Assembly (NCBI GenBank): GCA_041663425.1
Contig: JBAYMS010000001.1
Location: forward strand, 8,884-72,883
Length of the DNA: 64,000 nucleotides
Source of the DNA: Candidatus Omnitrophota bacterium
GTDB lineage: Bacteria; Omnitrophota; Gorgyraeia; 2-01-FULL-45-10
Direction of reading: 5' to 3'
Of this stretch, positions 1,258-34,094 are shown in pieces. Each line of letters opens with the position of its first letter. The first letter of the stretch is position 1. Below the pieces are notes generated by a model. The model did no database searches, had not been told where the DNA came from, and worked only from the letters and a program-made list of their open reading frames with translations. Made by a program: the position numbers and the translations under genes.

Positions 1258-3705
1258 TTAGTTTCTGCGCGGCGGAATAAACCTCTCTATCCTGTCCAGG
1301 CAGAATATGACTTCCTTTCGATTTATAGCATCGAACGGAATATATATCTGATACACCCCTTTGCCGCCATTCTTTATTCCTCCCCAGATAAAATAACAGC
1401 CTTTTTTTATTATGGAGTTCAGACGCATCTGCGCATTATTCCAATCGACAAAATAAAAATTCTTAATAGCATCGGCAGGGTCATCATAGCTTGAATCCGA
1501 GAACCATCTTCCCTCTATCCATGATTTTTTCTCCACCTTGGTGCCGTTTTCATCACAATGGAAGAACCTGTTTATAAATATATTTTTTTTCGCAACATAC
1601 ACCTTCATCGGACCGTCAAAATTTTCTGCGTTCTGGCCCAGTTCAGCCATAAGTTTTTTCGCAATTTCAGGCGGGGCAGTATCGTATTGCAGCCTATCCT
1701 TTATATTAAATTTTACCGTATTGTGGCTCTCGCCGAACAGCTCATATGAATTATTTTCATTAAGCTCGTCATACTTTACCGGAACGCTCACCCACCGTCC
1801 TTTTTCCCCATCGCCCCCGGGACCCTTTTTAGCTTTTTGTCCGCGATCTATTACTATCGTTTTATACGATTCTTTCCATAGAGAATCAAATTTTTCTTTA
1901 TATTCTTTGACAGCGCACGGAATAAAGACAAGACTTTCTCTCTCTTTGGTTTTTTTACCATCCCAATCATAACTGCCGGTAACCGTCTCATTTCCTATGA
2001 CTACAAACTCATTGCTCATGAGGCGCTTGCTTACACGATCATAGGTTATCGAAATATCTCCCCTTCGATAATTATTGATTCCCGAGACAGCCTCCTGCCG
2101 TTCAGCTTTTTTCTGAAGATCGCAAAAGTACTTTTTTATGATCCCTTTCTTTTGCTGGCTCGGATCAAGCAGGATTTGAATATTAACTCCCGATTCTCTG
2201 GCATCGAATAACGCTTTTGCTATTTTTTTATTTGTGAAAGAATGTTGCGCTATGCGTATGCTGGTATCTTCTGCGGGATGTTCCAGTTTACGTATCTTTG
2301 CTTTGTGGATAGAATTTATTATTGCTGTTTCACATTCGCATTGGCTGGAAAAATATGCTCTTACACCGTCGGGCGGTGAAAGATTTCGCGGTAACAGCCG
2401 TTTTTCGCCTCCCCACAGATAATCAAATTCCTCCTGAAAGCCGTCGGCATATTGTGTTAGAACGAGGCTGTCTTCGTTTATTTTTCCCGCTTTCTCGTCC
2501 CAATCAGAGCTGCCTGTCACTACAACCTTTTTATCGACAATAATAAACTTATCATGCATAAGGCCATTGCGCGAATCATACATTATATTCACTCCGCACT
2601 TTACCAGTTTTTTACTTATATCATCGTCCGCCTGGTCCTTGTTTAACACGATCCTTACCCTGACACCCGGCCGCCTGTTTTTCAGTGCACTCAACAAGAC
2701 GTCGGATTTAAAATTATACATGACTATATCGATCGCATTGTGAGCATTTGCGATTTCTTTGGACAAAGAACCAAGGGAACTGCCGTCCGGTGAAAATAAA
2801 ACACGCGCAGGTTCGTATGCCTTCACACTGTCTATTACTGTATAGTTTAATTTGCCCTGTATCGCTTCTATGTCTTTACGATTTTTACCGTCATTGTGCC
2901 TGGCGAGGATCTCCAATACACGGCGCCGCTCAGCGGTATTGTCCATGAGATCATCCGTTATTCTGTATTCGTATCCACCGGACATTGCTGTATTTGCCGT
3001 AACCAATCCCATCTGCGCGAGCAGATCCAGGCTGCGATAAACCTTCTGTGGAGATATTTCCATTTTTTTTGCATATTCCGAAACTGTGGCTTTTCCCTTA
3101 AAGTTATACGTAAGGCATTTCAATACTTCGCTCACCGGCAAAGGTCCTGCCCTGTTATTTTCCTCTGTGATTTCTTTGTATTTTTCACAGCTTAACTCTT
3201 CAACAAAAATCCTGCGGAAAGACCGTGACCCGACCTCTATATGATTAAACGTTCTGGCCCTGCTTTTATTGCGGAAATAATGGAAAACTTTGGCACTCGA
3301 ACCGGGTCTTTGCCTATAAGTTATGTATACCCCGTCCTGTATATCGATTTTTTCTATTTTCACCCTGCTGCAATTCGGCAATTTTATAATACGCCGGAGA
3401 TCGCTAAGCGAAAGTCCTGCTTCCAGTCCTCTCGATACAAAAAAAGCTGTGTAAAGAAATGTTGTATCGCTTTCTAATTTTTCTTTCGTGTCGTTTGTAT
3501 CGCTACATACCTTAAGCTGATTATCGGCGTTTGTGATTTTCACCAATGGCGCAAATTGTGAGTTAGGGCTTATGCTTTGAATGTCGGGATAAATGGGGGC
3601 ATCGCTTAATAGCGCATATAATAAAAAAGACCATGCGGCGATCTTTATCCCACATGGTCTATGCGGCTTTTTTGCAAACCTGCTTTCTACTAAAACAATA
3701 CTCAC
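1258..3705 (-). CDS. large PLD/Nuc-family (HKD) protein with wHTH-like segment and hydrophobic N-terminus
   Basis: 815-aa ORF. Hydrophobic N-terminal segment IAAWSFLLYALL. HTH-like stretch ISPQKVYRSLDLLAQMGLV. One intact HKD motif (LMHDKFIIVD...GSSDWD) and a second, degenerate copy (LMSNEFVVIG...GSYDWD). The ~200-aa C-terminal region has no motif I recognise. Confidence 0.6.
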   Translation of the reverse strand: MSIVLVESRFAKKPHRPCGIKIAAWSFLLYALLSDAPIYPDIQSISPNSQFAPLVKITNADNQLKVCSDTNDTKEKLESDTTFLYTAFFVSRGLEAGLSLSDLRRIIKLPNCSRVKIEKIDIQDGVYITYRQRPGSSAKVFHYFRNKSRARTFNHIEVGSRSFRRIFVEELSCEKYKEITEENNRAGPLPVSEVLKCLTYNFKGKATVSEYAKKMEISPQKVYRSLDLLAQMGLVTANTAMSGGYEYRITDDLMDNTAERRRVLEILARHNDGKNRKDIEAIQGKLNYTVIDSVKAYEPARVLFSPDGSSLGSLSKEIANAHNAIDIVMYNFKSDVLLSALKNRRPGVRVRIVLNKDQADDDISKKLVKCGVNIMYDSRNGLMHDKFIIVDKKVVVTGSSDWDEKAGKINEDSLVLTQYADGFQEEFDYLWGGEKRLLPRNLSPPDGVRAYFSSQCECETAIINSIHKAKIRKLEHPAEDTSIRIAQHSFTNKKIAKALFDARESGVNIQILLDPSQQKKGIIKKYFCDLQKKAERQEAVSGINNYRRGDISITYDRVSKRLMSNEFVVIGNETVTGSYDWDGKKTKERESLVFIPCAVKEYKEKFDSLWKESYKTIVIDRGQKAKKGPGGDGEKGRWVSVPVKYDELNENNSYELFGESHNTVKFNIKDRLQYDTAPPEIAKKLMAELGQNAENFDGPMKVYVAKKNIFINRFFHCDENGTKVEKKSWIEGRWFSDSSYDDPADAIKNFYFVDWNNAQMRLNSIIKKGCYFIWGGIKNGGKGVYQIYIPFDAINRKEVIFCLDRIERFIPPRRN

Positions 3706-3879
3706 AGGATTTCACCTTTCTTTAAAAAGGCGGGCATAAAAAAATGCCTGGCGAAAATATGCCAAGCATTTATTCAGTATTTTTAAAGCCTATAAAAGCT
3801 TACATTAAGAATGGGGATAAAGCAATAGGCGGGAGGCTACCTTTTTTATCTTTAATCAACTAAATTTAACAAAAGATTA

Positions 3880-5184
3880 TCACTGCTTTTTAAGATTTTC
3901 AAGCCATTCTTTGATCTTTTTCTCGTAACCCATCTCGGTTGGGATGTAATAAGCCTTGCTGGAGGGCTTATATTCCTGCTTCACATAATGATTTTTGAAA
4001 TCGTGCGCATATTTGTAATCTTTGCCGTGTCCGAATGCATCGGAATCCATAGTAGCATCTTTGAGGTGGTTAGGCACTTCCAGGACCTTACCCTCCTCAA
4101 CATCTTTCATAGCTGCCTCTATGCCCAGATACGCCGCATTTGACTTAGGTGCACATGCTACATAAACGGCTGCCTGGGCAAGCGGTATGCGCGCTTCCGG
4201 CATTCCGACAAATTCCGACACCTGCAGCGCCGCATTCGCTATTACTATCGCCTGCGGGTCTGCGTTACCCACATCTTCTGCCGCACATATCACGATTCTG
4301 CGGGCTATAAACCGCGGATCTTCGCCTGCGTAGATCATCTTTGCCAGCCAATAAAGCGCTGCGTCCGGATCCGAGCCTCTCATAGACTTTATGAATGCGG
4401 AGATCGTGTCGTAATGCCCGTCTTCGTCTTTGTCATACAATACGGACTTCTTCTGTATCGACTCCTCGGCAACTTTAAGCGTAAAATGTATTTTTTTGTC
4501 TTTGGCGGCAAGGGTGGTCAGCGCTCCTACCTCAAGCGCAGAAAGAGCCCTCCTCGCATCACCATCTGAAACTTTAGCCAGATGCTCCAGCGCTCCGGCC
4601 TCTATCTCAACCGGCATCTTACCAAGTCCGCGCTCTTTGTCTGCCAAAGCCTTTTTTAATATTGTAATTATATTTTCGTCTGAAAGTTTCTTGTATTCGA
4701 AAACCTGGGACCGGGACAGTAAGGCGGCATTTACGTAAAAGAACGGGTTATGTGTTGTTGTGCCTATCAGTATTGGGTTGCCGGCTTCAACATCCGGCAT
4801 AAGCACATCCTGCTGCGCCTTATTAAACCGGTGTATCTCGTCGACTAAAAGTATTGTCCGTTTGCCGCTGGTCGCTTCGCGCTTATGCGCCTGTTCTATT
4901 ATACGCCGCATGTCCGCGACATTGTTTGACGCGGCGTTTATACGCTCAAAATGGGAATTCGTCTTCTCGCTTATTATAAGAGCAAGTGTAGTCTTGCCGC
5001 AACCAGGAGGGCCATAAAGAATTATCGAGGAGATAGTATCGGATTCGATCAGACGGCGCAACAGCTTATCTTTGCCGAGGATATGTTCCTGGCCTACAAA
5101 ATCATCGAGCGACCCGGGCCTCATACGCGAGGCCATAGGCTCATTTTCTTTTATTTTAATTTTTTCTTTTTCGAATAGATCCAT
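3880..5184 (-). CDS. rarA: replication-associated recombination protein A (AAA+ ATPase MgsA/RarA)
   Basis: 434 aa. Walker A GPPGCGKTTLA, Walker B LLVDEIHRFNK, N-terminal ASRMRPGSLDDFVGQEH and RarA-type C-terminal helical region (ALYWLAKMIYAGEDPRFIARR). Confidence 0.88.
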   Translation of the reverse strand: MDLFEKEKIKIKENEPMASRMRPGSLDDFVGQEHILGKDKLLRRLIESDTISSIILYGPPGCGKTTLALIISEKTNSHFERINAASNNVADMRRIIEQAHKREATSGKRTILLVDEIHRFNKAQQDVLMPDVEAGNPILIGTTTHNPFFYVNAALLSRSQVFEYKKLSDENIITILKKALADKERGLGKMPVEIEAGALEHLAKVSDGDARRALSALEVGALTTLAAKDKKIHFTLKVAEESIQKKSVLYDKDEDGHYDTISAFIKSMRGSDPDAALYWLAKMIYAGEDPRFIARRIVICAAEDVGNADPQAIVIANAALQVSEFVGMPEARIPLAQAAVYVACAPKSNAAYLGIEAAMKDVEEGKVLEVPNHLKDATMDSDAFGHGKDYKYAHDFKNHYVKQEYKPSSKAYYIPTEMGYEKKIKEWLENLKKQ

Positions 5185-5199
5185 ATTAAATAAAAAAAT

Positions 5200-5349
5200 C
5201 CCCGCCTGTGCCGTGTGAACTTAATAATTTTGATCCCGATTCTCATCAGGTGGGAGCCCTCGAACAAACGCCAAAGCGTTTAACCAGTTAGGCCCCCGAT
5301 TCTAAATTATTGGGTCAAAATTTCTAATTCAATCACGCGCACCGCAGGG
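5200..5349 (-). ncRNA. candidate structured RNA: ~150-nt long imperfect hairpin with large internal loop (6S-like or rarA leader)
   Basis: The ends pair on the minus strand (CCCUGC/GCGGGG). Further helices are AAUUUUGACCC/GGGAUCAAAAUU and GGGGGCC/GGCUCCC, with an apical hairpin AAACGC-UUUG-GCGUUU. A roughly 14x14-nt internal loop has GAAUC on both sides. G-U pairs occur only in the minus-strand reading. A sigma70-like promoter lies upstream (TTGCCT at 5398-5393, N17, TATACT at 5375-5370). A U-run (AUUUUUUUAUUU) follows directly downstream. Confidence 0.3.
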
Positions 5350-5423
5350 ATATTTCTATTCCTAAATAAAGTATATCATACGATTACCGCAAAGGCAAAT
5401 TACGCCCGGGCGGTGCGATGGTT

Positions 5424-7463
5424 CTATCGTAATTTTGCGTCGAGTTTTTCTTCAAGTACACGCAGAATATTTGAATGGACAGACGTAACATCTTTTTCTT
5501 CGAGAGTTTTGGACAGATCAGCGTATTCAAGCCTGTAGGTAAGACTAACCTTACCGTCGGGAATCTGTTTACCGGCATATCTGTCGATCAGTTTTATCTC
5601 TTTTAGGATCGTCCCTGCCGTAGATTTTACCAGGTCGATAAGATCGGCATTTAAAACATCTTTGGGTACTACAAGCGACATGTCCCTGTGAGCTGACGGG
5701 TATTTCGGAAGCTCTACAAATCGCTTTTTAAGATTAGCGTGTTTTATTATAGTTTCCAGCGACAGCTCGCAGAAATATACATTGTCTTTGACGTCAAATT
5801 TATTAAGCATCTCCCTGTAAACCTCGCCTATCATGCCTATCACTTCTCCGGATATCTCAATAGATGCAGAGCATGAACGGGAATAAATATCGCCTGAGGT
5901 GGTTTTGAAAATTACTTTATCTATGCCGAGCGCTGATAAGGCCGCCTCTACCATTCCTTTTAGATCAAAAAAGCTGCAGGCCCTGGCGCCTTCTATCCAA
6001 CTCGTCACCTCTCCGGTAATGCCTATCGATAGATGTTTTTTTTCGGCAAATTTAATATCCGATTCTCTTATATATATTTTACCTATCTCAAAAAGTTTCA
6101 GATCTTTTGCTTTCCTGTTTATATTCCATAATATCGAGGAAAGCATGCCCGAGACAAGATTCGGCCGCATCACTTCCTGCTCGCTCGATAGCGGATTCTT
6201 TATCTCAACTATGGTGTTCAAAGCCGTATCAGAAACCGTAAGCATATTCTTACCAAGCAAACTATAGGTTATGATCTCGTCCGCACCCAATCCAGTCAGT
6301 ATTGTCCTTACTATTGTTTCGACTGTCATCTCAACGGGGATTTTGTTCTCCTGCTCCACTATTTCAGGTATGGTGCTCGGTATTTTATTATAACCATATA
6401 TGCGGGCCACCTCTTCCACCACGTCTATCTCTGTGTTAAGATCATACCGGAATGGCGGCGGTTCCACCACTATGCCGCTCTTTGAAGTTTTCTTTATCTT
6501 CATACCGAGGGAACTGATAATTCTCTTTGCCGTAAGCGCGGGTACTTCTATCCCCAAAGTTGCCTCAAGCTTTGAAAACCGTAACGTTATCGTTTTTTTA
6601 GCTGGAATATTTTTGCCTATGTCGATAAAATTACAAATTTCACCGCGGGCCGTTTCTTTTATAAGTGACGCCGCCCGCGAAGAGGAATACACTATATTAT
6701 TTATATCTATCTTTCTTTCAAACCGATAGCTTGAATCAGTAGATATGCCGAGCGATCGGGCAGTTCTTCTCACGGATATCTGGTCAAATGAAGCAGCTTC
6801 AAGTAGTATATTTTTCGTTGCGTTTGTAACTTCTGTATTTATACCGCCCATCACTCCGGCGATCGCGATCGCTTTCACTTTATCGGCTATTACAAGCATG
6901 GACTCGGTAAGAGTTCTTTCGACACCATCGATCGTGACTATCTTTTCGCCCTTGCGCGCCTTCCTTATAATGATCTCGCCGCCTTCGATTTTATCCATAT
7001 CGAAAGCATGCATGGGCTGGCCGGTTTCGAATAAACAGAAATTGGTTATATCGACAACGTTATTGACCGGGCGCAGGTTCATTGCATCAAGTTTTTTTCT
7101 GATCCCATCTGCGGAATCCGCGACTTTTACATCTTTTATAACCTGCAGCGTATATCTGGGACATAAGGTTTTTTCTTCAACGTTAACTTTTATCCCGGCT
7201 TTATCTTTGGAAGTTTTTATTTTCGGAAGGATGGGCAGTTTAAGTTTATTACCCGTAATGGCAGAAAGCTCTCTTGCCACTCCTATGTGCGATAGCCAAT
7301 CGGGCCTATTCGCAGTAACTTCTATTTCCAGAATGTAGTCGCTGCCTTCTTTATGCAAGATAGACTCTGTTGTAAGCCCGGACATTGTCAGCAGTTCTGC
7401 CAACTTTTCGGGCGCAGCATTCAGATTTATATAGTCTTTTAACCAGTTATAGCTTATGCGCAT
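5424..7463 (-). CDS. pheT: phenylalanine--tRNA ligase beta subunit (short form lacking OB-fold tRNA-binding insert)
   Basis: 679 aa with the typical N-terminus MRISYNWLKDYI. It lies 4 nt downstream of pheS and has a C-terminal anticodon-binding-like region. The segment after aa ~40 goes straight to ..LEIEVTANRPDWLSHIGVAREL, so the ~100-aa OB domain seen in E. coli PheT is missing. Confidence 0.9.
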   Translation of the reverse strand: MRISYNWLKDYINLNAAPEKLAELLTMSGLTTESILHKEGSDYILEIEVTANRPDWLSHIGVARELSAITGNKLKLPILPKIKTSKDKAGIKVNVEEKTLCPRYTLQVIKDVKVADSADGIRKKLDAMNLRPVNNVVDITNFCLFETGQPMHAFDMDKIEGGEIIIRKARKGEKIVTIDGVERTLTESMLVIADKVKAIAIAGVMGGINTEVTNATKNILLEAASFDQISVRRTARSLGISTDSSYRFERKIDINNIVYSSSRAASLIKETARGEICNFIDIGKNIPAKKTITLRFSKLEATLGIEVPALTAKRIISSLGMKIKKTSKSGIVVEPPPFRYDLNTEIDVVEEVARIYGYNKIPSTIPEIVEQENKIPVEMTVETIVRTILTGLGADEIITYSLLGKNMLTVSDTALNTIVEIKNPLSSEQEVMRPNLVSGMLSSILWNINRKAKDLKLFEIGKIYIRESDIKFAEKKHLSIGITGEVTSWIEGARACSFFDLKGMVEAALSALGIDKVIFKTTSGDIYSRSCSASIEISGEVIGMIGEVYREMLNKFDVKDNVYFCELSLETIIKHANLKKRFVELPKYPSAHRDMSLVVPKDVLNADLIDLVKSTAGTILKEIKLIDRYAGKQIPDGKVSLTYRLEYADLSKTLEEKDVTSVHSNILRVLEEKLDAKLR

Positions 7464-28455: not shown

Positions 28456-28532
28456 GGACGCGTAGCTCAGTTGGTTAGAGCACTACCTTGACATGGTAGG
28501 GGTCACAGGTTCGAGTCCTGTCGCGTCCACCA
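28456..28532 (+). tRNA. tRNA-Val (anticodon GAC), encoded CCA
   Basis: GGACGCGTAGCTCAGTTGGTTAGAGCACTACCTTGACATGGTAGGGGTCACAGGTTCGAGTCCTGTCGCGTCCACCA. The anticodon loop is TTGACAT. Confidence 0.85.
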
Positions 28533-28595
28533 TTCTACAGTTTGAGTCGGGAATTGTGGAGTGGAGACAAAAATTTAATTTTATTTAAGGTGTGT

Positions 28596-30455
28596 ATGTG
28601 TGGAATAGTAGGATACATAGGAACAAAAAGTGCGCAGGAAGTGCTGCTGAAGGGATTGAGCCGTCTGGAATACAGGGGCTACGATTCCTCCGGCGTAGCT
28701 ATTATTGAATCTAAGAAGCTAAACCTGGTAAAACGACAGGGCAAGCTGCGCATATTGGCCGACGTCTTAAAAGAAGGTCCTTCCAAGGGTACGGTTGGTA
28801 TAGGTCATACGCGCTGGGCAACACACGGTATTCCCAATGACATAAATGCGCACCCCCATTTAGACTGCACAGGCAAGATAGCCGTAGTTCATAACGGCAT
28901 TGTCGAAAATTATCTCGAGCTCAAAAAAATCCTGATGAAAGAAGGGCACAAATTTATATCGGAAACCGATACCGAAATAATTGCGCACCTGATCGAAAAA
29001 TATTATAACGGACATCTAGAAGCCGCAGTTTTAAAAGCAATCAAACTGCTCAAAGGTTCTTATGCGATAGCTGTTGTGCATTCTGGGGAGCCGGATAAGA
29101 TAGTCGGAGCAAGGTGTGATTCACCACTTATCATAGGTCTGGGCGACGGGGAAAATTTTCTGGCAAGCGATGTTCCCGCCGTGCTTGATTATACGAAAGA
29201 CGTCATATATCTCGATAACCATGAGCTTATCATTCTGACCAAAACCGGCGTCACCATCAAAGATTATGACGGACGAGTTTTATCGAAAAAACCGTCTAAA
29301 ATAAAATGGGATATTAAACAGGCGGAAAAAGCCGGCCATGAACATTTTATGCTCAAAGAGATTTATGAGCAGGGCGACATCCTCAGAAATATACTCGACG
29401 AAAGACTGCATGGCGGCAAGGTGGTTTTTGAAGAGCTTGCCATAGAAGCCGCAGCATTCAAACATTTTAAAAAAATAGCTCTGGTAGCATGCGGTACCGC
29501 TTATCATGCGGGACTGACCGGTAAATACATGATAGAGGAATATGTCAGGATACCATGCTGGGTGGATACCTCGAGTGAATTTCGATACAGAGATCCCATT
29601 GTTGACAAGGAAACGCTCTTCATAGTTATTTCGCAGTCGGGAGAGACAGCAGATTCTCTGGCGGCGCTCCGGGAGGCAAAAAGGCGCGGGGCGACAACCT
29701 TGGGCATATGTAATGCCGTCGGAAGTTCTATAGCGAGGGAATCGGACGGAGTGATTTATACTCATGCGGGTCCGGAGATAGCGGTGGCGTCCACAAAAGC
29801 CTATACTGCACAGCTGGCGATACTTTATTTGTTGACGCTTTATATGGGCACATTGCGCGGCAATATATCGAAGACGAAACTGGAAAAGCTTATTGCAGAA
29901 TTCCGAAGAGCACCCGATCTTATGGACGAGCTCATAAGCGAATATAAAGATCCGTATAATAATATTGCAGCTTATGCGAGTGAATTTAAACGATATTACT
30001 ACGAAAAACACAATAAATCCTATTTCCTGTATCTCGGGCGTAACATAAATTATCCCAATGCGCTCGAAGGAGCTCTGAAGCTGAAGGAAATATCCTACAT
30101 CAGCGCTGAGGGGTATCCTGCCGGCGAGATGAAACACGGGCCGATAGCTCTGATAGACGAAAATCCATGGGTTGTCTGCATTGCCACACAGGCAAAGACT
30201 TATGACAAGATGTTATCCAATATCCAGGAGATAAAAGCGCGCAGCGGCATAGTAATAGCGCTTGTGACTGAAGGCGACAAAGAGATACAGCACCATAATG
30301 TCAACTATGTTATAGAGGTGCCGAAGATAGACGAGCTGTTCAGCCCGCTTTTGGTGGTGATACCGCTCCAGCTGCTTGCTTATTATGTCGCGAAAAAGTT
30401 CGGTTATGATATAGATCAGCCGCGCAATCTTGCAAAATCGGTAACAGTCGAATAA
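28596..30455 (+). CDS. glmS: glutamine--fructose-6-phosphate aminotransferase
   Basis: The start is set at MCGIVGY because the Cys after Met is the obligatory nucleophile. The track TTG at 28542 adds 18 non-conserved residues. Two SIS domains and the C-terminal KSVTVE are present. Confidence 0.92.
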   Translation: MCGIVGYIGTKSAQEVLLKGLSRLEYRGYDSSGVAIIESKKLNLVKRQGKLRILADVLKEGPSKGTVGIGHTRWATHGIPNDINAHPHLDCTGKIAVVHNGIVENYLELKKILMKEGHKFISETDTEIIAHLIEKYYNGHLEAAVLKAIKLLKGSYAIAVVHSGEPDKIVGARCDSPLIIGLGDGENFLASDVPAVLDYTKDVIYLDNHELIILTKTGVTIKDYDGRVLSKKPSKIKWDIKQAEKAGHEHFMLKEIYEQGDILRNILDERLHGGKVVFEELAIEAAAFKHFKKIALVACGTAYHAGLTGKYMIEEYVRIPCWVDTSSEFRYRDPIVDKETLFIVISQSGETADSLAALREAKRRGATTLGICNAVGSSIARESDGVIYTHAGPEIAVASTKAYTAQLAILYLLTLYMGTLRGNISKTKLEKLIAEFRRAPDLMDELISEYKDPYNNIAAYASEFKRYYYEKHNKSYFLYLGRNINYPNALEGALKLKEISYISAEGYPAGEMKHGPIALIDENPWVVCIATQAKTYDKMLSNIQEIKARSGIVIALVTEGDKEIQHHNVNYVIEVPKIDELFSPLLVVIPLQLLAYYVAKKFGYDIDQPRNLAKSVTVE

Positions 30456-31140: not shown

Positions 31141-31208
31141 GCCCAAAATTACATTGACAAAATGCTTAAAGCGTGATACAATTACCACAATAAAGTTACC
31201 TTTTAATG

Positions 31209-31299
31209 CCGGTCCAGAGAGTCCGGAAAAGGAGAAGTAAGGATGAATACCAGACCCACTTATCTGTTTTGTAAAAATGATAGGTGGGATTTTTATTTT
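31209..31299 (+). promoter_or_regulatory. PyrR-binding leader plus intrinsic terminator (pyr attenuator)
   Basis: CCGG-UCCAGAGAGU-CCGG hairpin at 31209-31226 carries the PyrR box UCCAGAGAG. A 10-bp stem follows (CCCACTTATC 31255-31264 / GATAGGTGGG 31279-31288) and then ATTTTTATTTT (31289-31299). This lies just before the pyrR ATG at 31311. Confidence 0.6.
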
Positions 31300-31310: not shown

Positions 31311-31859
31311 ATGACGTTCAAAGAAAAGACCAAAATACTCGATAAAGACGATATAGACAGATCCCTTCAGAGGATAGCCCACGAAATAGTAGAAAAAATA
31401 AAGGCCACCGAGGAAATAGCGATAATAGGCATAAAGAACCGCGGAGCGTATTTGGGCCAGCGGCTTGCTGAAAAAATAGGAAAGATAACCGGCTCGAAAA
31501 TACCGGTCGGTGCGCTTGATATCACACTATACAGAGACGATCTTACTGAGGCTTCAAGTCAGCCCATAGTCCATGCCACAGAAATAAATTTTGATATCGA
31601 GGGAAAAAAAATAATATTGGTAGACGATGTCCTGTATACCGGCAGGACGATAAGGTGTGCTCTGGATGCATTGATAGATTTTGGAAGGCCCGCCCAGATA
31701 CAGCTTGCCGTATTGGTTGACAGAGGCCACAGAGAGCTTCCGATAAGGGCAGATTATGTAGGTAAAAATGTCCCGACGTCTCTTAAAGAGGTCGTGGAAG
31801 TTAAGTTATCAGAGACCGAAGGCAAAGACGAAGTAGTGCTTTGCGAAAAAGATAGGTAA
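31311..31859 (+). CDS. pyrR: bifunctional pyr operon regulator / uracil phosphoribosyltransferase PyrR
   Basis: 182 aa with PRTase motif [12 protein letters not shown] and the typical N-terminus [18 protein letters not shown]. Confidence 0.88.
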
Positions 31860-31863
31860 AGGG

Positions 31864-32808
31864 ATGGCAGAGAAGAAGATAGTCTGGACGAAGAAAGACC
31901 TTCTGGGGCTCGAATATCTTTCCAAAGAAGAGATCGAGCTCATTTTATATACAGCCGGAAGCTTTAAAGAAGTTACAACACGCCAGATAAAGAAAGTGCC
32001 CGCCCTGCGCGGCAAAACGGTGGTCAATTTATTCTATGAGCCCTCAACTAGAACGCGCACGTCGTTTGAACTTGCCGCAAAGCGCCTCTCAGCCGATGTC
32101 GTGAATATAGAGATAGAGACCTCCAGTGTGCGGAAAGGCGAGACCCTGATAGATACGGGGCGCAATATCGAAGCGCTGAAGATAGATATAATAGTGGTTC
32201 GGCACAACTGCAGCGGCGCTCCGATGATACTGGCGCGCAATGTGCAGGCGCGCGTGGTGAATGCCGGCGATGGATGGCATGAACATCCCACGCAGGCACT
32301 CCTGGATATGTTCACCCTGAAATCAAAACTCGGAAGAATCGAAGATCTGAAGGTAAGCATAATAGGCGACATAGCTCACTCACGTGTGGCACGGTCAAAT
32401 ATATGGGGGCTTACAAAGCTGGGCGCTAAAGTGACCGTATGCGCGCCGAAGCTTTTGGTTCCGGAAGGAATAGAAAAGATGGGCGTTAAGGTAACGACCG
32501 ACATAAGCGAAGCGCTCGAAGGGGCTGACGCGATAAATGTGCTTCGCATGCAATTTGAACGGGACGGTGCCATGGCATTTCCTTCGAAGCTGGAATATTT
32601 CAAGCAATATGGCATTACGGCCGAGCGTCTTTCGAAATGCAAAAAAGATATAGTTGTAATGCACCCGGGGCCGATAAACAGGGGCGTGGAGATGTCGAGC
32701 GAGGTAGCTGACGGGAAGAACTCGGTAATACTTGAGCAGGTGACCAACGGTATAGCGGTGAGGATGGCGGTCCTGTATCTGGTGGCTCACACAAAAGAGG
32801 CAGCATGA
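31864..32808 (+). CDS. pyrB: aspartate carbamoyltransferase catalytic subunit
   Basis: 314 aa with STRTRTSFE, HPTQALLD and HPGP motifs. Confidence 0.9.
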   Translation: MAEKKIVWTKKDLLGLEYLSKEEIELILYTAGSFKEVTTRQIKKVPALRGKTVVNLFYEPSTRTRTSFELAAKRLSADVVNIEIETSSVRKGETLIDTGRNIEALKIDIIVVRHNCSGAPMILARNVQARVVNAGDGWHEHPTQALLDMFTLKSKLGRIEDLKVSIIGDIAHSRVARSNIWGLTKLGAKVTVCAPKLLVPEGIEKMGVKVTTDISEALEGADAINVLRMQFERDGAMAFPSKLEYFKQYGITAERLSKCKKDIVVMHPGPINRGVEMSSEVADGKNSVILEQVTNGIAVRMAVLYLVAHTKEAA

Positions 32809-34094
32809 GTAAACAATATCTTATAAAAGACGGAAGAGTGGTCGATCCCGCCAATAAAATAAACGATATTTTCGATATATTAATATCCGACGGGAAAATA
32901 GAAAAAACCGGCAAAAATTTAAATATTAAATCAGGCGAGACTATCGATGCTAAAGGAAAGATAGTTGCGCCAGGATTTATAGATATGCATGTTCATTTGC
33001 GAGAGCCCGGGCGGGAAGATGAAGAGACGGTCAGAACCGGATCCAGGGCGGCAGTCCACGGAGGATTTACCAGCATCCTTTGTATGCCAAATACCGATCC
33101 GGCTATTGATAATCCGGCAGTCGTGAAAAACCTGAAAGATATAATCGCCAAAGATGCCGTCTGCAACGTTTTTATAGCCGGCGCTGTTACCGAAGGCCGC
33201 ACGGGTAAAAAACTTACCGATTTTGATAACTTAAAATCCGCGGGAGTCATAGCGCTCTCCGATGACGGATCTCCGACGCCGGATAGTATGATCGACGAAG
33301 CTCTTAAGCGTTCAATGAAAGCAGGGCTTCTGCTCACAGAGCATTGTGAAGTGCCGCGGCTATCGCAGGGCGGTGTTATGAATAAAGGATTTATTTCAAC
33401 GAAGCTTGGCCTGAAAGGCATTTCCGCGCAATCAGAATATGAAGCGGTAAAACGCAATATCGACATCGCTGAAAAATTATCCGCGCGCATCCATATTGCC
33501 CACGTCAGCTGTAAAGAGTCGGTAGAGTTTATAAGGCAAGCTAAAAAGAAAGGCGTTCAGGTTACTACGGAGACAGCGCCGCATTACTTTGCGTTGAGTG
33601 AAGAATGCTGCGCTACATATGACACAAACACCAAGATCAACCCGCCTTTGCGGAGCATGGCGGATGTTGACGCGATAAAGGCAGGGCTTGCGGACGGCAC
33701 CATAGATGTGATAGCGACAGATCATGCACCCCACACAGATTCAGAAAAAGATGTCGAGTTTGATTATGCGCCGTTCGGGAAAATAGGCCTTGAAAGCGCT
33801 TTACCTGTCAGCGTTATGGAGCTTGTCGATAAGAAGATCTTATCATGGGATGAGCTTATAAAAAAGTTGTCAGCCAATCCTGCTAAAATACTGGGCGTGC
33901 CAGGCGGTAGATTAAGTAAAGGCGATCCTGCGGATATAACCATAATAGATCCCGATAAAGAATATATATTGAAAAAAGATATTATAGAATCGAAATCAAA
34001 AAATTCACCCTTCATAGGCTGGAAGGTGAAAGGGAGAATATCCACGGTTTTTGTAAAAGGCACAATAGTAATGAAGGATGAAATAATGTTATAA
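32805..34094 (+). CDS. pyrC: dihydroorotase
   Basis: 429 aa with amidohydrolase motifs DMHVHLREPG and TDHAPH. Confidence 0.88.
   Translation: MSKQYLIKDGRVVDPANKINDIFDILISDGKIEKTGKNLNIKSGETIDAKGKIVAPGFIDMHVHLREPGREDEETVRTGSRAAVHGGFTSILCMPNTDPAIDNPAVVKNLKDIIAKDAVCNVFIAGAVTEGRTGKKLTDFDNLKSAGVIALSDDGSPTPDSMIDEALKRSMKAGLLLTEHCEVPRLSQGGVMNKGFISTKLGLKGISAQSEYEAVKRNIDIAEKLSARIHIAHVSCKESVEFIRQAKKKGVQVTTETAPHYFALSEECCATYDTNTKINPPLRSMADVDAIKAGLADGTIDVIATDHAPHTDSEKDVEFDYAPFGKIGLESALPVSVMELVDKKILSWDELIKKLSANPAKILGVPGGRLSKGDPADITIIDPDKEYILKKDIIESKSKNSPFIGWKVKGRISTVFVKGTIVMKDEIML

Follow-up and report, generated by a model that had tools for sequence, protein, structure and literature searches.

The window analyzed here, a stretch of 64,000 nucleotides of a Candidatus Omnitrophota genome, carries on its minus strand the gene pheT (5424-7463) and, after a gap of 239 nt, the gene rarA, the identity of both flanking genes being unambiguous from Pfam. 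RarA is a replication-fork rescue ATPase. The conservation of its N-terminus in relatives begins at residue 1-2, two metagenome contigs that share this gene order encode an identical RarA protein, and the closest genome relatives are Candidatus Omnitrophota MAGs (best RarA identity 83%), followed by Verrucomicrobiota and other MAGs. A first-pass annotation of the window had claimed that the pheT-rarA gap is not empty, and a match to 6S RNA does lie inside the 239 nt. The features of the locus, listed in the direction of transcription, are the following:

5393-5398, minus strand: -35 hexamer TTGCCT of the ssrS promoter (promoter scan)
5370-5378, minus strand: TG-extended -10 element TATACT, TGATATACT (promoter scan)
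5362-5363, minus strand: predicted transcription start, A5363 or G5362, 7-8 nt past the -10 element by sigma-70 geometry
5195-5353, minus strand: 6S RNA (ssrS) gene, 159 nt, with bounds from the Rfam RF00013 model
5344-5351, minus strand: closing stem, 5' strand, RNA positions 3-10, AUCCCUGC, paired with positions 149-156 in the minimum free energy (MFE) fold
5309-5322, minus strand: predicted pRNA template AAUUUUGACCCAAU, placed by homology, with initiation at U45 (window position 5309)
5298-5311, minus strand: bubble 5' strand, AAUAAUUUAGAAUC, 14 nt, unpaired in the MFE and centroid folds and open in 60/60 homologues
5252-5297, minus strand: apical stem-loop GGGGGCC...AAACGC-UUUG-GCGUUU...GGCUCCC, a shortened 6S apical arm
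5235-5251, minus strand: bubble 3' strand, holding CCUGAU (5250-5245) and AUCGGG (5240-5235)
5198-5205, minus strand: closing stem, 3' strand, GCGGGGAU, of which GCGGGG is nearly invariant in relatives
5188-5198, minus strand: U-tract UUUUUUUAUUU, directly 3' of the closing stem
3880-5184, minus strand: rarA/mgsA, 434 aa, with Pfam domains MgsA_C, AAA_assoc_2 and AAA
3735-3771, minus strand: strong canonical intrinsic terminator, 11-bp stem and T-run (terminator scan)

6S RNA is a widespread bacterial RNA that mimics an open promoter and sequesters RNA polymerase, and it is among the best-known regulatory RNAs. In a covariance-model scan with Rfam, the 6S/SsrS family (RF00013) matches 5195-5353 of the minus strand with a score of 77.5 bits (E 1.5e-13; gathering score 46.4 bits), and the alignment is full length, spanning model positions 1-187 of 187, with about 25 model positions deleted in an apical arm that is shorter than the Rfam consensus. 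This match is the sole non-tRNA match at gathering level in the whole window, where it occurs in one copy, and the same scan finds no RF00013 match on the plus strand. A permissive scan of window positions 5000-5600 finds no other Rfam family at E up to 1, so that SRP RNA, Ms1, riboswitches and leaders were rejected as the family of the gap element; the absence of an SRP RNA, for which the first pass had pointed to missing domain IV motifs, is borne out. The 5' side of the central bubble, GACCCAAU, aligns with the Rfam consensus GAgCCgAa, and the 3' side, CCCACCUG...GGGAUCAA, with CCCACCUg...GGuUCaA; in relatives the two parts of the signature, 5' GAnCC-AA and 3' CCCACCUG...GGUUCA, fall in columns that are invariant or nearly so, and the 3' signature in the form CCCACCUG...GG(U/A)UCA agrees with the Rfam consensus. 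What lies between pheT and rarA is thus a 6S RNA gene of the ordinary kind, a member of a known family, and the defining features of that family that can be examined in sequence are present at this locus, the rearrangement on pRNA synthesis as a prediction. The by-eye structural call of the first-pass annotation, which had guessed at the 6S design and proposed Rfam and covariation searches, proved sound: the Rfam search returned RF00013 and no unrelated family, and the guess is borne out by the full-length match, by covarying homologues at the same position and by the bubble signature. The existing Rfam model recognizes the Omnitrophota copy outright, so that there is little new biology in the identification itself; its value for annotation is that it fills a seemingly empty gap in the genome of an uncultivated organism.

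The 159 nt from 5353 to 5195 fold as one interrupted rod of -66 kcal/mol (MFE), compared to -41.2 ± 4.1 kcal/mol for dinucleotide shuffles, none of which (0/200) is as stable (z = -6.0). Both the MFE and the centroid structure consist of a closing stem, a central bubble of 14 x 14 nt and an apical stem. The MFE fold contains all of the helices that had been named by eye, namely the terminal helix CCCUGC/GCGGGG (5349-5344 / 5205-5200), the helix P2 formed by AAUUUUGACCC/GGGAUCAAAAUU (5322-5312 / 5237-5226), the helix GGGGGCC/GGCUCCC (5297-5291 / 5258-5252) and the apical AAACGC-UUUG-GCGUUU hairpin, and the bubble, AAUAAUUUAGAAUC / ACCUGAUGAGAAUC, has GAAUC on each side as had been described. 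The duplicated GAAUC is not conserved among homologues, and it is set aside as a lineage-specific or chance feature rather than a meaningful motif. The minus-strand orientation that had been argued from G-U pairs holds: eight G-U pairs of the minus-strand fold exist on that strand only, and the plus strand folds 11.7 kcal/mol weaker, with a z-score of -6.3 versus -6.0 for the minus strand. More decisive is a clade-specific covariance model built from 30 of the relatives' 6S sequences, which scores the window at 129.9 bits in the sense and 36.8 bits in the antisense direction and thereby fixes the orientation; the plus strand, which also has no Rfam match, is ruled out.

The same RNA recurs at the same position in relatives. 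At 44/60 loci (29/40 in the first set scanned, 15/20 in the second), rarA is immediately preceded, in the same orientation, by an Rfam 6S match at or above the gathering score, and the clade-specific model finds a sense match in that place at 68/80 loci of Omnitrophota, Verrucomicrobiota and others, with none at this position in the other 12 (L006, L014, L017, L020, L052, L059, L062, L069, L070, L072-L074). The gene pheT is upstream in 44 of the 80 rarA loci. Two Omnitrophota loci with no 6S match, L006 and L017, have pheT abutting rarA (pheT end 2488, rarA start 2501); these would be lineages in which 6S was lost from the pheT-rarA site or moved elsewhere. The relatives' 6S sequences form two length classes, about 155 nt and about 185 nt, that differ in the apical arm. 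When 60 sense homologues are aligned, standard pairs fill 92.7% of the pair cells and compensatory double changes are seen at 31 of the 37 pairs; because the model guided this alignment, the counts lean towards the structure. Its covariation score of 0.458 compares to 0.168 ± 0.007 for shuffles (0/500 reach the native score) and to no more than 0.12 after sliding the partners by 1-3 columns. RNAalifold, applied to an independent plain MAFFT alignment, finds 37 pairs of which 26 are compensatory, in agreement with the model-fitted counts. Helix 1, the closing stem, is 98.8% paired across the 60 homologues with double changes in 5 of 7 pairs, and helices 5-8 of the apical arm are 86-97% paired with compensatory changes in every pair. 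Covariation of homologous regions, which had also been proposed as a check, is strong, both in the 60 sequences and by RNAalifold.

The sigma70-like promoter noticed in the first pass is present as TTGCCT-N17-TATACT at 5398-5370 of the minus strand, with TG ahead of the -10 element, and it is conserved: of 67 usable relatives, 42 have TGnTAnnnT in the 70 nt that precede 6S, versus 2.9 ± 1.8 of 69 control windows drawn at random from the same loci. The usual extended -10 form in relatives is TGTGCTATACT, and TTG at -35 accompanies the extended -10 in 38 of the 42 (38/67 loci). The -10 element ends 16 nt ahead of the Rfam 6S start, and the primary transcript probably begins at one of the two purines listed above, as judged from promoter geometry. 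The A-rich leader that would precede the Rfam match can pair with the U-tract, and the resulting fold of 178 nt has an energy of -73.4 kcal/mol. The length of about 150 nt estimated in the first pass is near to the 159 nt of the Rfam match, but the primary transcript to the U-tract is predicted to be about 170 nt. At the other end of the RNA, AUUUUUUUAUUUAAU follows the closing stem and the rarA ATG comes directly next, just as had been described. In relatives the conserved 3' end of 6S is GCGGGGAUUUUUU, and a run of at least four T is found at the 3' end of 58/67 homologues. The closing stem with the U-tract is likely to be both the 3' end of the 6S RNA and a leaky terminator, one that the terminator scan missed because the closing stem encloses about 140 nt.

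6S RNAs compete with promoters for the housekeeping holoenzyme, and synthesis of a short product RNA (pRNA) from the 5' bubble strand releases them (PMC8414754, PMC8876501). In E. coli 6S RNA, pRNA initiates with ATP at U44 of a GAnCCnAU motif (PMC9670815), and alignment with this motif places the predicted start at U45 of the Omnitrophota RNA. The predicted pRNA, antisense to 5309-5322, is 5'-AUUGGGUCAAAAUU. The published hallmarks are a template start at U or C with A next to it on the 3' side and, in the pRNA itself, GG at 4/5 or 5/6 and AA at 9/10 (PMC8414754); here A46 follows U45, and the predicted pRNA has GG at 4/5 and AA at 9/10. It is identical at 11 of 14 positions to the pRNA of B. 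subtilis 6S-1 (bsrA), GUUCGGUCAAAACU. Most relatives have C as the predicted initiating template base (a G start), and the window and about a dozen others have U (an A start). The initiating C of B. subtilis 6S-1 is like that of most Omnitrophota relatives, whereas the window has U; pRNA efficiency reportedly depends on the initiating nucleotide in B. subtilis but not in E. coli (PMC3753640).

A release mechanism can also be predicted from the fold. When at least 8 nt of the template are blocked in constrained folding, a 6-bp hairpin CCUGAU/AUCGGG with a GAGA loop is predicted in the 3' bubble strand; the GGG of its AUCGGG arm is common to helix P2, where it is otherwise paired with GACCC. An equivalent hairpin of at least 4 bp ending on that GG is predicted in silico in 36/60 homologues versus 6.9 ± 2.4 for shuffled sequences, and its arms vary in homologues (CCUG/CAGG, CAUG/CAUG, CCUC/GAGG). 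The very probable explanation of the whole locus is an ssrS gene with its own promoter, encoding a rod that mimics a promoter to RNA polymerase and is released by pRNA synthesis, and likely bicistronic with rarA. Transcription of the minus strand from the TG-extended -10 promoter would start at about 5363 and yield an RNA of about 160-170 nt, the bubble of which, judging from its homologues in E. coli (6S) and B. subtilis (6S-1), would mimic an open promoter and occupy the active site of the housekeeping sigma-70-type holoenzyme, so that housekeeping transcription would be damped. When nucleotides are plentiful, the polymerase would copy the 5' bubble strand and the adjacent helix from U45 into the pRNA; this synthesis would unwind the P2 helix and free its GGG, the freed GGG would close the CCUGAU/AUCGGG hairpin, and the rearranged 6S RNA would leave the polymerase. 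Holoenzyme binding and damping of transcription are attributed to the Omnitrophota RNA wholly by transfer from homologous 6S RNAs, and polymerase binding, pRNA synthesis, rearrangement and rarA co-transcription are all predictions at this locus.

The Omnitrophota RNA and E. coli 6S RNA (ssrS) belong to the same covariance-model family and are alike in being rods with a bubble at the center. The predicted pRNA start also corresponds: it uses a template U in the GAnCCnAU motif and initiates with A (U44 in E. coli, U45 here; PMC9670815). In E. coli, pRNA synthesis leads to a hairpin in which the 3' bubble strand pairs with the 3' strand of the downstream helix (PMC8876501), and the same is predicted here; the release hairpin has 9 bp in E. 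coli and is predicted to have 6 bp in the Omnitrophota RNA, in which three pairs are preformed in the free RNA. Compared to E. coli 6S RNA, the Omnitrophota RNA is 159 nt long, with a shorter apical arm and a U-tract at its 3' end. In B. subtilis 6S-1 and the 6S RNAs of lactic acid bacteria, a small hairpin of the 3' bubble strand is present already in the free RNA (PMC8876501), as it is predicted to be here.

The start of rarA is 10 nt past the end of the 6S match on the same strand, and neither a canonical terminator (terminator scan of the minus strand between the 6S promoter and rarA) nor a separate rarA promoter between 6S and rarA, where there is no room for one, was found. This 10-nt gap with no intervening promoter or canonical terminator makes it probable that rarA is read through from the 6S promoter. 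A candidate internal promoter for rarA within the RNA, TAGAAA-16-TAGAAT (5326-5299), was rejected: it is a 9/12 match of which two are found versus 1.3 by chance, and its -10 element lies in a variable bubble strand. Nothing from the 6S promoter to rarA resembles a terminator except the closing stem with the U-tract, and read-through at that point therefore probably sets the transcription of rarA. The strong terminator at 3735-3771 sits in the 174-nt gap between rarA and a downstream PLD-like gene and is likely to be the end of the putative ssrS-rarA unit. On balance, the arrangement of the locus favors a bicistronic ssrS-rarA transcript: the closing stem and U-tract would form the 3' end of the 6S RNA, by partial termination or by processing, and the transcripts that continue past this point would end at 3771-3735. 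There is a precedent in E. coli, in which a protein gene on the same strand, ygfA, directly follows ssrS and is co-transcribed with it (PMC2848244), as rarA is positioned to be here. The U-tract after the long-range closing stem may instead terminate efficiently, in which case the source of the rarA transcript would be unexplained. Co-transcription of ssrS and rarA is not universal: the 6S-to-rarA gap is 3-28 nt in 13 of 45 tabulated sequences (the window and 44 loci), many relatives have a gap of 50-270 nt, in some of which 6S is followed by a hairpin terminator of its own, and 6S is missing from this position at 12/80 loci. The first-pass annotation had also pointed to the missing Shine-Dalgarno (SD) sequence of rarA, which is indeed absent but is not a special feature of this gene, as pheS, pheT and a ThiI-like gene in the same window likewise lack one; other genes there have an SD.

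The same features of the junction could be read as a cis-acting, transcription-attenuating leader of rarA that has no action in trans on RNA polymerase, the alternative that had been offered in the first pass as a terminator-type leader. The closing stem followed by UUUUUUUAUUU and by the rarA ATG 10 nt past the match, the failure to find a separate rarA promoter, and a 6S-rarA gap of at most 28 nt in 13 of 45 sequences, the window included, are all as such a leader would have them, but an attenuator has no role for the conserved bubble signature or the pRNA template, and it does not account for a full-length 6S match far above gathering. Neither the MFE nor the centroid structure contains a competing antiterminator fold, and the terminator scan rejects the structure as canonical, which calls for a compact, GC-rich hairpin (loop 3-8) with a U-tract right next to it. 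In many relatives, moreover, the RNA lies 50-270 nt from rarA, in some cases with its own hairpin terminator, which marks it as an independent gene. An exclusive leader function is therefore very unlikely as the primary identity of the element; the part of the earlier alternative that stands is that this is the only terminator-like feature before rarA.

It is extremely unlikely that the rod is a 6S look-alike, a structured RNA of another kind with RNA polymerase or the ribosome as its partner (Ms1-like, SRP or some other rod-like sRNA). Rods with internal loops are common, and Ms1 of Actinobacteria is likewise rod-shaped, binds RNA polymerase and is reported to be structurally related to 6S RNA (PMC9130861); yet Ms1 binds core polymerase rather than holoenzyme, is actinobacterial whereas the host genome here is that of an Omnitrophota bacterium, and has no match in the gap. 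The absence of any other Rfam family in the gap at E up to 1 and the presence of the sequence-specific 6S signature weigh against the other candidates as well. The probability that the rod is only a palindrome or repeat at the DNA level (REP-like or MITE-like), or an inverted repeat that arose by chance and has no function as RNA, is negligible. The near-equal strand z-scores (-6.0 and -6.3) would be expected of any long inverted repeat, but the Rfam match is on the minus strand only, the clade-specific model separates the strands by 129.9 versus 36.8 bits, eight G-U pairs are specific to the minus strand, the element is single-copy in the window, its position is conserved with extensive covariation across phylum-level relatives, and its upstream promoter is conserved. 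The identification as 6S RNA is thus preferred over all three.

In nearly all Lactobacillales, and for B. subtilis 6S-1, 6S RNA adjoins rarA (PMC8414754), and the same-strand, near-abutting arrangement of ssrS and rarA in the Omnitrophota clade is a small comparative observation that is modestly new and adds no new mechanism. The arrangement differs from that of lactic acid bacteria, in which rarA is upstream of 6S and both genes are apparently monocistronic (PMC8414754), whereas here rarA follows 6S after 10 nt in the same orientation; B. subtilis has rarA on the strand opposite 6S-1 (PMC8414754), in contrast to the shared strand in the Omnitrophota window. The same-strand linkage in 68/80 loci, often at 3-28 nt, thereby extends the Firmicutes linkage to a distant group in a form that implies co-transcription. 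A literature search of limited coverage found no report on 6S RNA in Omnitrophota or the PVC group, or on an ssrS-rarA operon, beyond the paper on lactic acid bacteria. It is a tentative idea, and on present evidence a doubtful one, that in Omnitrophota and their PVC neighbors a conserved pheT-ssrS-rarA arrangement makes the whole 6S RNA the 5' leader of rarA mRNA, with a leaky terminator or processing site, formed by the 6S closing stem and U-tract, that couples the amount of RarA to 6S transcription, and that together with the proximity in Firmicutes this reflects an ancient functional link. A functional linkage of 6S and rarA would hint at a tie between global shutdown of transcription and replication-fork rescue, and if the 6S RNA does serve as the rarA leader, the ancient link would be one between sequestration of RNA polymerase and the handling of stalled forks.

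Some further observations were made at the relatives' loci and elsewhere in the window. A long palindrome, GGCCACAAyTTrCGG ... CGyAArTTGTrTGGCC GAATTAA, is conserved in several of the Omnitrophota relatives that have a 6S-rarA gap of 116-139 nt (L035:2369-2440, L036:2238-2310, L038:2382-2450 and L060:2362-2430, with variants in L025 and L032); its arms have compensatory differences between loci, and a terminator, an operator and a small repeat element are all conceivable identities for it. It was rejected as part of the window locus, where there is one match with a single mismatch (3549-3560), outside the 6S-rarA gap, against 0.8 by chance. On the minus strand at 28494-28617 there is a sub-threshold match to HPnc0260, a Helicobacter antisense RNA (55.3 bits versus a gathering score of 59), which overlaps tRNA-Val (28456-28532) as well as the beginning of a GlmS-like gene and is probably an artefact driven by the tRNA. 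On the plus strand at 31195-31296 there is a sub-threshold match to the PyrR binding site RF00515 (47.3 bits versus a gathering score of 54; E 0.0023), directly followed by genes for a PyrR-like phosphoribosyltransferase of 182 aa (31311-31859), an aspartate carbamoyltransferase-like protein (31864-32808) and a dihydroorotase-like protein (32805-34094); the match together with this gene context suggests a real pyrimidine attenuator that falls below the Rfam cut-off.
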